From positions 1-64,000 of IMG/VR virus record IMGVR_UViG_3300010397_000003: a stretch of 64,000 nucleotides of DNA. One strand, written 5' to 3'. A program made the translations under genes and the position numbers. This stretch comes from a virus. Shown piece after piece: positions 3,420-38,271 of this stretch. The number at the start of each line of letters is the position of its first letter. Position 1 is the first letter of the stretch. The notes under the pieces are model-generated. The model ran no database searches, had not been told where the DNA came from, and worked only from the letters and a program-made list of their open reading frames with translations.

Positions 3420-3761
3420 TTACTCGCCGTCGCAAAACTTACTTTGTCGGCATGGGCCGCACCGCATTCTATCAGGGAACCGCTCGCCGTACATATCAAC
3501 CGGCGGCGATACCAAGTGTCCGCATTCTAGTTTCCAGCGGGGCGCTCGCACCATCATGCCGTCATCATCCAACCCGAGATTAGTGAACTCCTCGGTGCTT
3601 ACCACGGCCCGCAACGGAGCATTCCGAAGTCCGATACGCTTCGCTTCGCCGGCCTCCATTCGGGCATCACGTTCCGGGTTAGGCTTTAACAGGCCAAGGT
3701 CTGTCGCCTTCTGAACCATTCGCCTATGTTCTTTTATTCCGCTCATGTTTCGTTCCTCCAA
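3420..3761 (-). CDS. hypothetical Zn-binding protein
   Basis: LECGH...CGPC motif. Confidence 0.55.
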   Translation of the reverse strand: MEERNMSGIKEHRRMVQKATDLGLLKPNPERDARMEAGEAKRIGLRNAPLRAVVSTEEFTNLGLDDDGMMVRAPRWKLECGHLVSPPVDMYGERFPDRMRCGPCRQSKFCDGE

Positions 3762-3775
3762 CCTGATGGAGTCAC

Positions 3776-4069
3776 CTACCGGACACTTTCGTTTTCTCTG
3801 AACTTACTTTGCGGGTTTCTTCTTCTTTGGGCGTCCGCCCGGAACCGCTCCGCGCTTTCGATTCCAGTGCGGATCGTAATTCCATGAACAGCAAGCATAT
3901 CGCTCTCCCTCGCTAATTCCTGTCGAAGCCACGCCTTGATTGCCTCATGCCGTTTCCAGAACCGCTCCTTGTTGCCGTAATACCATCCGGTCTGTTCGCA
4001 GTCGTCCGCGTAACTCGCAATCTGAGCAAGCATCGTCGCGCTAAGTTTCAGCCGCTTTTTTGATTTCAT
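3776..4069 (-). CDS. hypothetical protein, paralog of 29637..29879
   Basis: shared LKLSxTMLAQIAxYAxDCExxGWYYGNxxxFWKRHxAIKAWLxQE; start reassigned to ATG 4069. Confidence 0.75.
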   Translation of the reverse strand: MKSKKRLKLSATMLAQIASYADDCEQTGWYYGNKERFWKRHEAIKAWLRQELARESDMLAVHGITIRTGIESAERFRADAQRRRNPQSKFRENESVR

Positions 4070-4095
4070 GATAGCCACTCTGTTCTTCTCCTTTT

Positions 4096-4150
4096 GCGAG
4101 CAATAGCGAGCGGTCGTCTGTGAATGCTGGTCGTCTCGCCAGGTCTGGGT
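4096..4150 (+). repeat. cassette arm type A (partial)
   Basis: GCGAGCAATAGCGAGCGGTCGTC...GGTCGTC, same subtype as arms at 12425 and 33377. Confidence 0.5.
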
Positions 4151-4337
4151 TCTTATTTTTATGATCCTATAAATCGAAAGAGAAAGCCGATCCACCTCCA
4201 AAGTAGATCGGCCCTTGCTAAAACTAACCACAGATTGTGTTGGGAAACGCATTAAATCTACTGAGTACCTGATCGACATGTGATACGCATATTGACTCCT
4301 TTGTTTGATTTGATTTCAGCATAACTAGTTTGTGGAC

Positions 4338-5321
4338 TTACGCCGCTACGGGTTTGGCTCTGTAATCCTCAGTCGGAGGTTTGATCGTGATCTTCGGCAT
4401 TGGCTTGTCTGTGCGCACCCATTCGGACACTCGGCCGCCGCGGGCCTGATCTGGTTTCCACTGTTGAGGCTGCTTGATGAAATAGCCGTCAGTTTGAAGA
4501 TTAAGCATTACGCGGCGAACCTCTGAAACCGGAAGGAAAGTAAACTCTGACATGAGGCTGTCCGTGTTGTAGCCCTTCTCCCAGGCGTAGAGCAACGCTT
4601 CCTCTGCGGCCTCGATAAACAATCCGTCGTGGCGTTCGAGCAGTTGCACGATTATCTCCAGAATATCATCCGCACAACGGGTATCGGGACACCTCAACCG
4701 GAGGGCATCAAGCGTAGGGTGCGCGTCAAAGTGAAGCCAGTTAGCCATCGCTTTGCGCTTCTCGCCGCCTATGGACTCAACAAAAGCCTTTCGCGCCGCG
4801 CTTCGGGTTTCCTTAATTTCCTCAACCGCTTTGCGGGCATCCGCGACCGAGAAAAAAGGGTTGTCTGCTTTCTTCTGCGCAAACACCTCCAACGCTTCTT
4901 CAGCGTCGGGCGCTCGCAGGGCTTGCTCGTAAAATCCCTTCTCCGTCAGGTCTGCGAATTTCTGATCGATCAGAAATTTCCCAAGCGTGTCGATAATTTG
5001 GGCGTTACGGTAAATCGTTGAACGGCTCTGGCCCTTTAAGTACGCTTCCTTGTCAACCGCCGCGACCACGCCCACGTCATCGCCTTTGGACTCAAGGCGC
5101 TTGAACATCTCAGAATCACAAGCGCACTCGACCACCCAAGCCCATGTTCCAACCTCTCGCGCCTTGTCGCGTATCTCTTTAATCTCTTCCGGTTCAAGTT
5201 CAGGAAGGAGCAGCAGCAACGAGTCACGGGTCTGTTCGAGACTGTTTGCGCCGTGAATGATTTCGGCCAAGGCTTCAGTTACGCGGGTCTTACGTGGTTT
5301 TGGTTTTAAGGCTGCTGACAC
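4338..5321 (-). CDS. hypothetical helical protein, possible C-terminal winged helix
   Basis: 327 aa ORF, AGGAG RBS with GTG start. Confidence 0.7.
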   Translation of the reverse strand: MSAALKPKPRKTRVTEALAEIIHGANSLEQTRDSLLLLLPELEPEEIKEIRDKAREVGTWAWVVECACDSEMFKRLESKGDDVGVVAAVDKEAYLKGQSRSTIYRNAQIIDTLGKFLIDQKFADLTEKGFYEQALRAPDAEEALEVFAQKKADNPFFSVADARKAVEEIKETRSAARKAFVESIGGEKRKAMANWLHFDAHPTLDALRLRCPDTRCADDILEIIVQLLERHDGLFIEAAEEALLYAWEKGYNTDSLMSEFTFLPVSEVRRVMLNLQTDGYFIKQPQQWKPDQARGGRVSEWVRTDKPMPKITIKPPTEDYRAKPVAA

Positions 5322-5349
5322 AGGGGTTGCTCCTATTCAAACTGTTTCT

Positions 5350-5500
5350 ATTTCCATTAATCAACTCCCATGAACTTTCGCGGCTTACTTAATTGCGAAT
5401 TTCAGGCTGCCCTTGCGGACAATTCGAGGCTCATTCCAAGCCCGACCTTGAGCGTGTTGATAGCGGCGTTAACGTCTCTATCGTGCTCGGCTCCACAATG
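5350..5500 (-). ncRNA. putative TnpB omegaRNA (scaffold ending TTCAT plus guide)
   Basis: TnpB omegaRNAs overlap the gene 3' end; TTCGC..GCGAA stem then GTTCAT right-end-like motif; 5' boundary is a guess. Confidence 0.45.
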
Positions 5501-6454
5501 AGCACACGTCCAAAGTCTTACCTTCAAGCCTGCCCATCCGCTCGGCCCGGAAAGAGCGCCGCACGTCGAACAAGTCTTGGTGGAATTTCGTGACGGCACT
5601 TCGATGTACTCACGACCGCCTGCACGGCACTTGTACGCGAGCATAGATCGAAGCTGTCCGTGGCTACTTGATGCGACGGACTTGCCGAACTTCTTTGCGA
5701 TGTTTTTATGATTGTCTGCGCTGAAGGCGATTAACTGATTCTCGGAAACCAATCGTCGCGACAACTTGTGATTGCGATCCTTGCGCTGATTCGCAATTCG
5801 CTCGTGTAGTCTCGCAACCTGTTTGCGGTTAACGCCTCGCTGGGCCTGCGCCAATCGCAACGCGGAGGCTTCTAATTCTCGTGGGTGCGACATCTTCTCG
5901 CCTGACGATAGTGCGAGCAAATCCTTAAAGCCAGGGTCGATACCTATCTCTGAATCAGAGACGTGCGGAATCGCGTTTGGTTCCGCATCTATGAATAGAC
6001 ACAGATACCAGCCGCTTGCGCGCTTAACGATTCGGCCGCATTTGACTTTACCTTCAGGGACTTCCTGTTTGTGGTGGCGGATGCGCCCCAGAGTCGGGAT
6101 GCTTATGCGGCGATCGGGCCATCGCTTTACCGGATCGATTAGCGGAATACTGTTGAGTCGATTGCGGAATCCTTTGAGTCGCGGCCTGCGAGCAATACCC
6201 TTGAAGCATCGAGACCACGCGAGGTACGCATCGGCCAAGATCCCTTGAAGCACGTGACTTGGAATCTCCACCTTCTGGGAATGGTTCGCCAGAAGATTCT
6301 GAAAGGCTTTCGGCGTATAGAACACCCGGTCACGAGCGTCGTTCTCGATCTTTTTTACGCCCCAGTTCCACACGGCGGTTAGATGGCAAAGCCAGCGGTT
6401 AAGCTGGCGCTCTTGCCGCGGAGTGAGTTTCAGTTTTAACTGAACCTGAACCAT
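5402..6454 (-). CDS. tnpB: TnpB-family RNA-guided endonuclease (solo, no TnpA)
   Basis: N-terminal HTH, RuvC-I IGIDPG, Zn finger CSTCG..CAHCG, RuvC-III DRDVNAA; RuvC-II reads LIAFSADN, lacking the usual Glu. Confidence 0.9.
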   Translation of the reverse strand: MVQVQLKLKLTPRQERQLNRWLCHLTAVWNWGVKKIENDARDRVFYTPKAFQNLLANHSQKVEIPSHVLQGILADAYLAWSRCFKGIARRPRLKGFRNRLNSIPLIDPVKRWPDRRISIPTLGRIRHHKQEVPEGKVKCGRIVKRASGWYLCLFIDAEPNAIPHVSDSEIGIDPGFKDLLALSSGEKMSHPRELEASALRLAQAQRGVNRKQVARLHERIANQRKDRNHKLSRRLVSENQLIAFSADNHKNIAKKFGKSVASSSHGQLRSMLAYKCRAGGREYIEVPSRNSTKTCSTCGALSGPSGWAGLKVRLWTCAHCGAEHDRDVNAAINTLKVGLGMSLELSARAA

Positions 6455-6515
6455 GTGAAACTATCTTATTTTACAACACTTTAGCGAGAGATTGGAGAAC
6501 TTTGTTCAACTCCCT

Positions 6516-6764
6516 TCAACACGTCTCGCAATAGGCTATGCGGCCTCTGTGCGTCAGAATCCAGCCGTGAATCGTCATCGGGAATTGTCCGCCCAATGTG
6601 AATTCGACGGCATCCACCAATCCCTTTTCTTGCATTGCGTCGAGAATCTTGGCCTTCGATTGGAAACAGCGCGGCAGACTCTTGTGATAGAACGCTTGCG
6701 CAATCTCAGAAGCGAACATCTTTTCGAGCATCTTCATTTCTGCTTTCGTGATCGTGTCTGCCAT
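6516..6764 (-). CDS. hypothetical protein (winged-helix-like)
   Basis: 82 aa, ends in WILTHRG motif. Confidence 0.6.
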   Translation of the reverse strand: MADTITKAEMKMLEKMFASEIAQAFYHKSLPRCFQSKAKILDAMQEKGLVDAVEFTLGGQFPMTIHGWILTHRGRIAYCETC

Positions 6765-6777
6765 TACCTAAACTCCC

Positions 6778-7071
6778 TCAACCCGCAACCTCAATTCCAA
6801 GCGCTGCGAATGCGTCAGCTAAAGTCTCAACTTTGAAGATCGGATAGCCCGCCCATTTCTCCGCAAACTCCTTCTGGCCGGGACGCAGTTTTCGTGCGCT
6901 TGGCTTCTTCGCGCCGTCCTTCAATTCAAAAAGCACCAAACGTTGACGGTGACCCACAAGAAGATCGGGGATTCCTTTGCCGCCTAACTTCTGAACCTTG
7001 ACGCCGATCTTCTCTAAGGCGCTCACGATTGCCTTCTCGTTGGCATCTTTTCTGTGAACCGCGTAACGCAT
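6778..7071 (-). CDS. VRR-NUC / PD-(D/E)XK nuclease
   Basis: DANEKAI, GIPDLLVG, FELK, LRPGQ motifs. Confidence 0.8.
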   Translation of the reverse strand: MRYAVHRKDANEKAIVSALEKIGVKVQKLGGKGIPDLLVGHRQRLVLFELKDGAKKPSARKLRPGQKEFAEKWAGYPIFKVETLADAFAALGIEVAG

Positions 7072-7401
7072 CTATTTCGTTTCGATTGCTGCTAGAGCAG
7101 CTAGACAGATTGCTTTGGGGAAGGTTTCGGCTTCAATCCATTCATTGTGCAAACCGTCTGTTAGTCCGTCTTTTAGAAATTGCGCAAACCACCGCCTTTG
7201 TCCGTTACGCTGGATTAAATAGTCCGACATGAAGTGGAGTCCTGGCGCGGCGATCTTCTCGACTACTTCCATTGCTGCGGAGATGTCCGTGGAGTAGCGT
7301 GGGAGTATTGACGCGCCCACCTTATCCGCGCCAGTCATCCAGTCCCAACCCATTACCTTCACGCCAATCTGCTTATCTAATTCTCGATCTTCCATCTCCA
7401 C
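7072..7401 (-). CDS. phage ABA-sandwich-domain-like protein
   Basis: RELDxxIxxKVMGW...PRYSTDISAAMEVVEK...AICLAAL. Confidence 0.7.
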   Translation of the reverse strand: MEMEDRELDKQIGVKVMGWDWMTGADKVGASILPRYSTDISAAMEVVEKIAAPGLHFMSDYLIQRNGQRRWFAQFLKDGLTDGLHNEWIEAETFPKAICLAALAAIETK

Positions 7402-7407
7402 CTCTTT

Positions 7408-7530
7408 GCGAGCGAGCCACGAAACTACATCGAAACGGGCGTCGCTGAATTACCGTTGCTTTCAGAAAATAAATTCATTTCTGTTAATGAGAACCAGAAC
7501 CCTTCTAACTTTGTCGTCACGGTCTCCGTT
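7408..7530. repeat. back-to-back cassette arms (A on +, B on -) sharing AATTC core
   Basis: GAGCC-N38-TGCTTTCA, core 7472..7476, then CTGTTAATGAGAACCAGAACCCTTC. Confidence 0.65.
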
Positions 7531-7556
7531 TTCTCGCTCTGGTACGGCGTCCGATG

Positions 7557-7733
7557 CTAATCCTGATCATCAATCCAAAGCTGCGCGTTATCCCGCGCTT
7601 CGTCTTTATCTTCGCCGCGCGCATCGTGAACGCTGTTCTGTAGTTCGTCGTGAACGAAGCCCCACCATTCGCCCGCACGCTCTTGAAGGTCGATGTAGTA
7701 ACCGCGATAGTATTCCCACTGTTCGCCGTTCAT
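7557..7733 (-). CDS. small acidic protein (58 aa, below ORF-track cutoff)
   Basis: hand translation MNGEQWEYYRGYYIDLQERAGEWWGFVHDE...; ATGA coupling to upstream gene. Confidence 0.55.
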   Translation of the reverse strand: MNGEQWEYYRGYYIDLQERAGEWWGFVHDELQNSVHDARGEDKDEARDNAQLWIDDQD

Positions 7734-7936
7734 GGTCTTGCTTCCTTGGCTACGCGCCGACCCTTAGCCGTCAATCGCGCGATTTCGATTATTCCCGGCA
7801 CGCCAAGCCGCTCAATAAATCCTTGCGACATGCAATAGCGATAGCCTTTGGTTTTTGATGGCGGCAGAACAAGTCCTTTGCCCGGCTCACATTTCGCCAA
7901 CTCAATAAGTAGTTGCTTCCAGTTCTCGATTGCCAT
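7730..7936 (-). CDS. hypothetical protein
   Basis: MAIENWKQLL..., GAGG RBS. Confidence 0.5.
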   Translation of the reverse strand: MAIENWKQLLIELAKCEPGKGLVLPPSKTKGYRYCMSQGFIERLGVPGIIEIARLTAKGRRVAKEARP

Positions 7937-7946
7937 CTCTTTCCTC

Positions 7947-8168
7947 TCAGATACCCCGAAGCGCAGCGTCTTTGAAATGAACGTGGCCGCATTCACAAAC
8001 ACATTTCACCGTCTTAGCGGCGTGCGGTGTGAATTGTTCACACTTATCACACCATTGCACCTCTGCCGCACATTCGGCAGTCACCGCGCCCTTTGATGGC
8101 GTCCCGCACGTCACGCAGTTCAAGAAATGCGAATAGCGCGGCTGGCGTTTGGTTCTAGCCATTCTCAC
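7947..8168 (-). CDS. small Cys-rich Zn-finger protein
   Basis: CxxC x2 and CxCxCGH. Confidence 0.55.
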   Translation of the reverse strand: MRMARTKRQPRYSHFLNCVTCGTPSKGAVTAECAAEVQWCDKCEQFTPHAAKTVKCVCECGHVHFKDAALRGI

Positions 8169-8210
8169 TTCACCTCAAAAAGAAAAGGCCCGAATAAATT
8201 CAAATCAAAA

Positions 8211-8262
8211 TCATTCAGTTTCATGCTACCCAGAACCCTTCCTGCTTATGTTCTAAATCCCC
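8211..8262 (-). repeat. cassette arm type B
   Basis: CCAGAACCCTTCCTGCTTA resembles 11930..11965; the MTase ORF ends inside it. Confidence 0.5.
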
Positions 8263-38103: not shown

Positions 38104-38271
38104 ATGCGGGAAATGAAAGCAGAACGAAACACGAATCCTGCCGGACGTGAGGGAAGACCTATTAGCCTTCATCCGCTGAAACCACGCGATGCGATCCGTG
38201 GTCTTCTAGCTGTGAAGCCACCACCGAAAGACACTCACAAAGCAGAGAAGAAAACTAAGCGCAAAAAGTAG
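38104..38271 (+). CDS. small basic protein (IS passenger)
   Basis: PISLHPLKPRDAIRGLLAVKP; Lys-rich tail. Confidence 0.5.
   Translation: MREMKAERNTNPAGREGRPISLHPLKPRDAIRGLLAVKPPPKDTHKAEKKTKRKK

Follow-up and report, generated by a model that had tools for sequence, protein, structure and literature searches.

A guide-anchored repeat flanking a solo tnpB in a phage genome as a possible scar of RNA-guided homing

The window analysed here, 64,000 nucleotides of the genome of a soil phage (IMG/VR record IMGVR_UViG_3300010397_000003, positions 1 to 64,000), carries on its minus strand a tnpB gene of the IS200/IS605 transposon family that is flanked by two direct copies of a 9-bp sequence. We read this repeat as a scar left by imprecise RNA-guided homing of the tnpB cassette into a TGAA site, a reading to which we assign a probability of about 0.5. 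The repeat had been reported in a preliminary description of the locus, and its presence was confirmed: the window contains exactly two copies of GGGAGTTGA, at 6506–6514 and 5361–5369 (minus strand), and the likeness stretches to 13 of 15 bases (GTTGAAGGGAGTTGA versus GTTCATGGGAGTTGA). On the minus strand, the upstream copy is read as GTGTTGAA-GGGAGTTGA-ACAAAG (6522–6500) and the downstream copy as AAGTTCAT-GGGAGTTGA-TTAATGG (5377–5354). The downstream copy begins exactly at the first base of the predicted guide, right after the tip of the right end, while the upstream copy (6506..6514), which equals guide positions 1–9, is directly preceded on its 5′ side by TGAA (6515..6518), the putative transposon-adjacent motif (TAM). 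TGAA followed by the 9-mer has a single occurrence in the whole 77-kb genome.

The start of the guide was placed using a covariance model of the scaffold of the omegaRNA, the RNA partner of TnpB. This model (R1), built from 33 relatives with the window excluded, holds 23 pairs with 93.7% paired cells, 15 of the pairs show compensatory changes, and none of 500 shuffles was as good. R1 gives one high-scoring hit in the window (5481..5370, 85.9 bits, E 1e-19), which spans the whole model and places its last position at 5370, and because the model ends there the guide is predicted to start at 5369 (GGGAGTTGATTAATGG). The 3′ part of the scaffold (5370..5481, minus) overlaps the 3′ end of tnpB and closes with the tip TTCAT (5374..5370); it is followed by the predicted 16-nt guide, which is also the right-flank target (5354..5369, minus) and contains the downstream repeat copy at 5361..5369. 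The model thus puts the scaffold end at 5370 and not elsewhere, with the guide directly 3′ of the right end, as the preliminary description had it. Multi-copy elements of the clade, from Waddliaceae, Acidobacteriota and Acidoferrales genome bins, are common up to ..GGTTCAA| and their flanks diverge directly after it. The nearest relatives (loci L002, L025, L058, L060, L086, L087 and L141) have a variant end, with GAAAT, a locus-specific short stem and then ..TCA(A/T)|. An Rfam scan of 4800–7000 returned no omegaRNA family, only chance matches, and the whole-RNA fold of 5354–5600 was no more stable than shuffles (z −0.33); support for the predicted omegaRNA is that of the covariance model, not of single-sequence energy.

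The TAM was approached through the flanks of related elements. Each of the 22 left-end flanks in which a hairpin foot can be recognised shows TGA[A/G]|C[A/G]A.., and the multi-copy left junctions of Waddliaceae and Acidoferrales read N-TGA[A/G]|C[A/G]A.. as well; the left edge of the Acidobacteriota multi-copy set lies outside this TAM reading. In 20 of the 22 flanks (L009–L159), position 4 of the motif varies together with the base that precedes the left-end hairpin (TGAA goes along with GCGCAAT and TGAG with GCGCAAC), which would follow if pairing with the left end lets the transposase recognise its cleavage site. Cleavage-site pairing of this kind is known for IS608-type transposases, and the target of TnpA and the TAM of TnpB are coupled. 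From the family left-flank motif together with this coupling, we infer that the clade TAM is TGAA. The TTGAA noted in the preliminary description is therefore in keeping with the family motif (TGAA, or TGAG in some elements) rather than unlike it, and appears to be a correct TAM context. Since TGAA directly precedes the upstream copy, the joined TGAA|GGGAGTTGATTAATGG of an empty allele would be a complete target, as had also been proposed; at the occupied right junction TCAT stands in place of TGAA, so that this junction should not be a target. The geometry of occupied versus empty allele is consequently that of standard IS605 homing logic, here in a phage, and is supported by the family evidence.

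The anchoring of the repeat to the guide makes a chance origin unlikely. When 200 nt upstream were compared with 140 nt downstream without any anchor, a shared 9-mer was found in 11% of mismatched control pairs. By contrast, the downstream copy is anchored at the first guide base, and an anchored null, in which a guide prefix of at least 9 nt has to occur within 150 nt upstream of the ATG, gave 0.0003 per locus with the guides of other loci and 0.006 per locus with shifted starts. The repeat is real and non-random.

The same geometry was found in relatives at unrelated sites and with unrelated sequences that do not resemble ribosome-binding sites (RBS): the guide start is repeated on the upstream side of tnpB, while the boundary on the right is exact. 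The upstream copy measures 11–12 nt in L058, 10 nt in L027, 9–11 nt in L087, 9/10 in L051 and 7 nt in L026, while that of L160 is exact over 7 nt (11/16 overall) and that of L002 matches at 23/26; in L060, a 9-nt copy spans the right-end tip. Copies of at least 9 nt occur at 4/55 unique loci without a left-end foot or tnpA versus 0/58 canonical loci, with ~0.02 expected, and the cassette's left boundary lies between 0 and 51 nt ahead of the ATG, depending on the locus. An exact TGAA precedes the copy in the window, in L160 and, with a one-base offset, in L027, and a motif with one mismatch does so in L002 (TAAA) and L087 (AGAA). The left-end remnants of L058 and L087, which lie at unrelated sites, are homologous, and the copy at each locus ends in AACCA just where this homology begins, which looks like a pair of microhomology junctions. 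No copy exceeds 26 nt; perfect copies are 7–12 nt long, and both longer ones are imperfect, with mismatches at guide positions 1, 4 and 9 in L002 and beyond position 7 in L160. As other TnpBs need 12–16 bp to cut, this pattern of lengths and mismatches fits, in a small sample, selection against self-cleavage by an active nuclease.

Some of these relatives show further peculiarities at the guide. The two copies in L002 (2982–3003 and 4087–4108) have three differences, all within guide positions 1–9, that, read in the upstream gene's frame, are conservative or synonymous (..KEMIARL-stop versus ..QQLIARL-stop) and could be escape changes constrained by that coding frame. At the right end of tnpB in L027 (~4030–4110), the final 13 nt of the scaffold (CATCGGAAGTTCA) are present twice with a 15-nt segment (GTGGAAGAACTGAAG) between them, a repeat-spacer-repeat arrangement at the omegaRNA end; the first 10 nt of GTGGAAGAACTGAAG are also those copied upstream of tnpB. 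L086 has a 10-nt inverted match (ATTAACAGCT) between its upstream region and its predicted guide (~2455–2466 and 3580–3592), where the copies elsewhere are direct.

The left side of the cassette in the window suggests how the repeat arose. It reads TGAA-GGGAGT-TGAA|CAAAG, with the second TGAA|CAAAG at 6508–6500. This second TGAA (6505..6508, minus) is made up of the final three bases of the upstream copy plus A, and abuts the left-end start CAAAG; the sequence that it abuts, CAAAGTTCTCCAATC.., resembles the canonical starts TGAA|CAAAGG and TGAA|CAAGAG (then ..GCGCAAT). The cassette proper comprises 6504–5370, and the 10 extra bases (GGGAGTTGAA) that separate the first TGAA from the left end are the exact product of joining an empty allele (..GTGTTGAA GGGAGTTGA T..) to a precisely occupied one (..GTGTTGA A|CAAAG..) at GTTGA. 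Elements of the IS200/IS605 family make no target duplication (PMC13565253), and no such repeats are seen in the canonical multi-copy relatives; for these reasons the repeat is read as a scar of recombination or repair rather than as a product of transposition. A cassette flanked by a 9-bp direct repeat (13/15) departs from this family trait of insertion without target-site duplication. The "duplication" of the preliminary description is thus upheld as regards the two copies, but not as a target-site duplication made by insertion; it appears instead that 10 bp at the start of the target were retained, with the TAM on one side and a degenerate left end on the other. Staggered cutting with fill-in was considered as a source of target duplication and rejected, as the repeat starts at target position 1 and not in the distal cleavage zone.

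The product of the gene (tnpB, 350 aa; 5402..6454, minus) matches OrfB_IS605 (PF01385, E 6.5e-11) and the Cas12f1-like TNB domain (PF07282, E 3.6e-22), as well as solved TnpB structures, with ISDra2 TnpB at E 1.5e-22. Its clade is large (2999 proteins at E ≤ 1e-20, many of them on contigs of phage size) and counts among its members both complete IS605 elements that carry tnpA and multi-copy bacterial ones. The closest TnpB relatives are 70–76% identical and lie on contigs of 67–72 kb. D173 of RuvC-I and D327 of RuvC-III are present and the CxxC..CxxC zinc finger is intact, its four cysteines (C295, C298, C317 and C320) being invariant across 30 aligned clade proteins. At RuvC-II, Ser245 (LIAFSADN) takes the position of the Glu E278 of ISDra2, and Ser245 and Asp247 (Ser-x-Asp) are likewise invariant in the 30 aligned proteins. 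The same is true of E285 (YIEVPS), which in a structural model (mean predicted local distance difference test score 80) lies on the strand 282–286 that comes after the RuvC-II strand 241–245. For rearranged TnpB clades, a relocated Glu has been proposed at such a position, and some of their branches have been reported to be virus-specific (PMC10691335). E285 fits a relocated catalytic Glu in the model, and the nuclease is probably active. The rearranged RuvC-II region corresponds to 5560–5760 of the window (tnpB codons ~232–298).

Taken together, these observations are consistent with a cassette that can spread or persist because empty alleles are cut under RNA guidance and then repaired from an occupied genome. 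In such a process, TnpB-omegaRNA expressed from an occupied genome would cut the empty allele distal to the TAM; the right end would then recombine within the homologous right flank, so that the cassette is copied, whereas the left end, with the TAM and the target start, would be joined at the 5-nt microhomology GTTGA without removal of the non-homologous tail. Such a repair would yield TAM - target start - (partial) left end - tnpB - scaffold | full target, with the 10 extra bases left behind. The retained TAM and 9-nt seed would be too short for cleavage and may be weakly bound, with any regulation being secondary. Several points weigh against homing as the origin of the repeat. Neither an empty nor a precisely occupied allele of this phage was found, which makes the donor and the recipient hypothetical, and unequal recombination at the microhomology would yield the same product with no TnpB cut at all. 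L058, L051 and L026 have no TGAA ahead of the upstream copy, and the three seed mismatches of L002 would hinder the cut that homing needs, unless they are of later origin. The TAM specificity of the nuclease is deduced from transposon flanks only, and, with the canonical RuvC-II Glu absent, nuclease activity depends on the relocated Glu proposed from the model at E285.

A broader and rather improbable extension of homing would see target-start retention as a transposase-independent lifestyle of tnpB in phages, in which the gene homes like a free-standing homing endonuclease gene and the copy doubles as a non-cleavable binding site that tunes the expression of tnpB and omegaRNA. Were this true, a cassette bordered by the TAM plus target start to its left and by the full target to its right would give both cut ends perfect homology to the donor, no flap would have to be removed, and selection by an active nuclease would explain why perfect copies measure at most 12 nt and longer ones are mutated.

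Other explanations of the repeat have to be set against the homing scar. It may be that the TAM and 9-nt seed form a selected operator at which TnpB-omegaRNA binds without cutting and blocks read-through into tnpB. An exact TGAA with a perfect 9-nt seed does lie 51 nt upstream of the tnpB start, L160 also retains TGAA with an intact 7-nt seed, and other TnpBs hold an intermediate of ~7 bp that is able to bind yet unable to cleave, and need 12–16 bp to cut (PMC12803034). Cas systems have been reported to repress themselves by way of partial matches. Autorepression of this kind, raised as a possibility in the preliminary description, is unlikely all the same. The retained TAM and seed stand, and binding is physically possible (PMC12803034), but regulation is unsupported: a scan of the tnpB strand upstream of the gene found no sigma-70-type promoter, and the features are not conserved, in that the position and length of the copy and the left junction vary among relatives and L002 has a mismatched seed and an off-consensus motif. 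Because tnpB sits within a run of co-oriented small genes with no promoter-like site found upstream of it, a roadblock would also silence the downstream phage genes. Moreover, selection cannot create a new 9–12-nt match at each site, so that a generating mechanism would be needed anyway, and the pattern looks like a by-product combined with self-cleavage avoidance rather than a selected operator. The repeat could also have been made by a Y1 transposase acting in trans, if aberrant cleavage at a neighbouring TGAA/TGAT-like site captured ~10 nt of flank in the excised circle and re-insertion at the same TGAA brought these bases to the opposite end. This would account for the two TGAA motifs that bracket the upstream copy 10 nt apart, for the second of them abutting a canonical-looking left-end start (CAAAG), for the TGAT in which the downstream copy ends and for the TGAA that directly follows the right-flank copy in L087 and L027. 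However, the left end in the window has no hairpin and the genome no tnpA; L002, L027, L060 and L160 have no left end at all, with the copy 0–10 nt from the ATG, so that TnpA could not act on their present forms; and such repeats occur in 0/58 canonical elements, which have hairpins or tnpA. Capture by a transposase fits the window alone and not the relatives that have no left end, and we hold it to be a doubtful account of the repeat.

Two further alternatives are much less probable. GGGAGTTGA might be an RBS-plus-spacer word of the phage that stands on both sides of the cassette by coincidence. GGGAGTT is indeed an enriched RBS-like word in this phage (12 copies versus ~6 expected) that precedes the ATG at 6764 as GGGAGTTTAGGTAATG, and unanchored 9-mers are common in the controls. 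Yet no start codon follows the upstream copy, so that it is not a working RBS; the exact TGAA ahead of it, the low values of the anchored null (0.0003–0.006) and the recurrence of the anchored geometry in relatives with non-RBS sequences leave coincidence very little room. It is just as hard to credit that tnpB encodes a nuclease-dead, domesticated repressor of the TldR type, with the repeat marking its regulatory target. Ser in place of the RuvC-II Glu in LIAFSADN would suit such a protein, and TldRs are recognised by an inactivated or truncated RuvC and a fixed tie to a regulated host gene. The window protein is full-length, with no C-terminal truncation, its RuvC-I and RuvC-III Asp residues and zinc finger are intact, Ser-x-Asp is common to all 30 aligned proteins of the clade, which has mobile members, both tnpA-linked and multi-copy, and the invariant E285 occupies the position proposed for the relocated Glu (PMC10691335).

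Compared with known systems, the homing scar would combine features of several. Like ISDra2/IS608-type IS200/IS605 elements, for which restorative homing has been described (PMC10055086, PMC10278001), the cassette has a scaffold that overlaps the 3′ end of tnpB, a guide taken from the right flank, a TAM (TGAA, against TTGAT in ISDra2) on the 5′ side of the left end and a right-end tip (TCAA or TCAT) unlike the TAM, so that the occupied allele is no target. Unlike them, it has no TnpA and no left-end hairpin, lies in a phage genome and has the first nine target bases copied between the TAM and the left end, in a family that duplicates no target (PMC13565253). With IS1341-type solo tnpB genes and the clades rearranged at RuvC-II (Altae-Tran et al. 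2023, PMC10691335), it shares tnpB as the sole gene and a replaced RuvC-II Glu with a conserved Glu on the next strand; the largest rearranged group of that study has Gly at RuvC-II, whereas the window clade has Ser-x-Asp. The free-standing homing endonuclease genes of T-even phages (Seg and Mob; intronless homing) are alike in being intergenic, selfish phage nuclease genes that cut a co-infecting allele lacking them and are copied by repair, and the same likeness holds for the "non-restorative homing" proposed for OMEGA systems (PMC13565253). Target recognition in the window would differ from that of Seg and Mob in using an RNA guide and a TAM. To our knowledge, a scar that retains the target start has been described neither for the T-even homing genes nor for non-restorative homing of OMEGA systems. 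Finally, Cas autorepression by partly matching guides (CreR, cr-like RNAs; 10.1101/2023.03.10.532045) and TldR (PMC10705468) resemble the locus in placing a motif and a short seed beside the effector gene for binding without cleavage; their sites overlap promoters and are conserved, whereas no promoter turned up at this locus, and relatives have a variable or mutated site.

Homing by TnpB-omegaRNA has been shown in bacteria as retention of the transposon after excision, while transposase-free spread between phages has only been proposed. A recurrent footprint anchored at guide and TAM, present only in solo cassettes that have lost the left end, would provide natural sequence evidence for RNA-guided homing and for the way in which the break is repaired. 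The repeat also marks sites at which TnpB may bind its own locus without cutting, and the putative homing footprint yields simple predictions that can be tested.

Searches of the phage collection, viral contigs and the contigs of two soil runs for empty alleles, to which the preliminary description had pointed as a check, came up with none. A blastn search of the phage collection with 4300–7500 gave no match, and the 327-aa downstream gene has no relatives in the viral contigs. Exact searches of these contigs returned no predicted empty allele and, for the precisely occupied junction, three unrelated chance matches only. The contigs of the two soil runs contained the occupied allele only, with no joint across 5370–6505; such contigs drop rare variants, so that rare empty alleles are not addressed by them. 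One of these two runs, which comes from a different study, carries the same occupied right junction. Scaffold words of 14–15 nt were located at 217 loci in viral contigs, and TnpB is encoded at two already-known elements only. Between the window and L002, the nucleotide identity of tnpB rises visibly from the 5′ part of the gene to its 3′ third. A weak second match to R1 at 38105–38208 (+; 15.9 bits, E 0.016) has nothing beside it that resembles a remnant of TnpB coding sequence, and is probably noise.

The complete virus record (77,298 bp, with direct terminal repeats) contains a single copy of tnpB, and no Y1 transposase TnpA (PF01797) was found in this genome, in a search to which control genomes respond. 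The gene is thus solo, as had been stated, and since the genome encodes no Y1 transposase the cassette is classed from gene content as non-autonomous and of the IS1341 type. The stretch 5354–6518 (minus) holds a non-autonomous IS200/IS605-type cassette made up of a degenerate left end, tnpB and an omegaRNA. Canonical relatives carry GCGCAAT-hairpin-GGGGTCAAGC at the left end; a subterminal left-end hairpin matching the right-end hairpin is not present in the window, where a remnant of 50 nt (6455..6504, minus) retains only CAAAG..CAATC.. and has lost the complementary hairpin arm. Upstream of the cassette lies an 82-aa open reading frame (ORF) of the phage (6516..6764, minus; phrog_2239, of unknown function), whose stop codon TGA (6518..6516) forms, with the following A, the first TGAA. 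Downstream, a 6-codon mini-ORF (5337..5357) stands between the guide and a 327-aa phage ORF with no family match (4338..5321, minus). About 1 kb upstream of tnpB, 699 nt (7459–8157) are missing from one contig of the second soil run, at a joint that is weak (one contig, with 29 letters on its shorter side), and direct repeats of 40 nt that are 73% alike (7466–7505 and 8202–8241) occur in the region 7458–8241. These data suggest presence/absence polymorphism of a small gene cassette.

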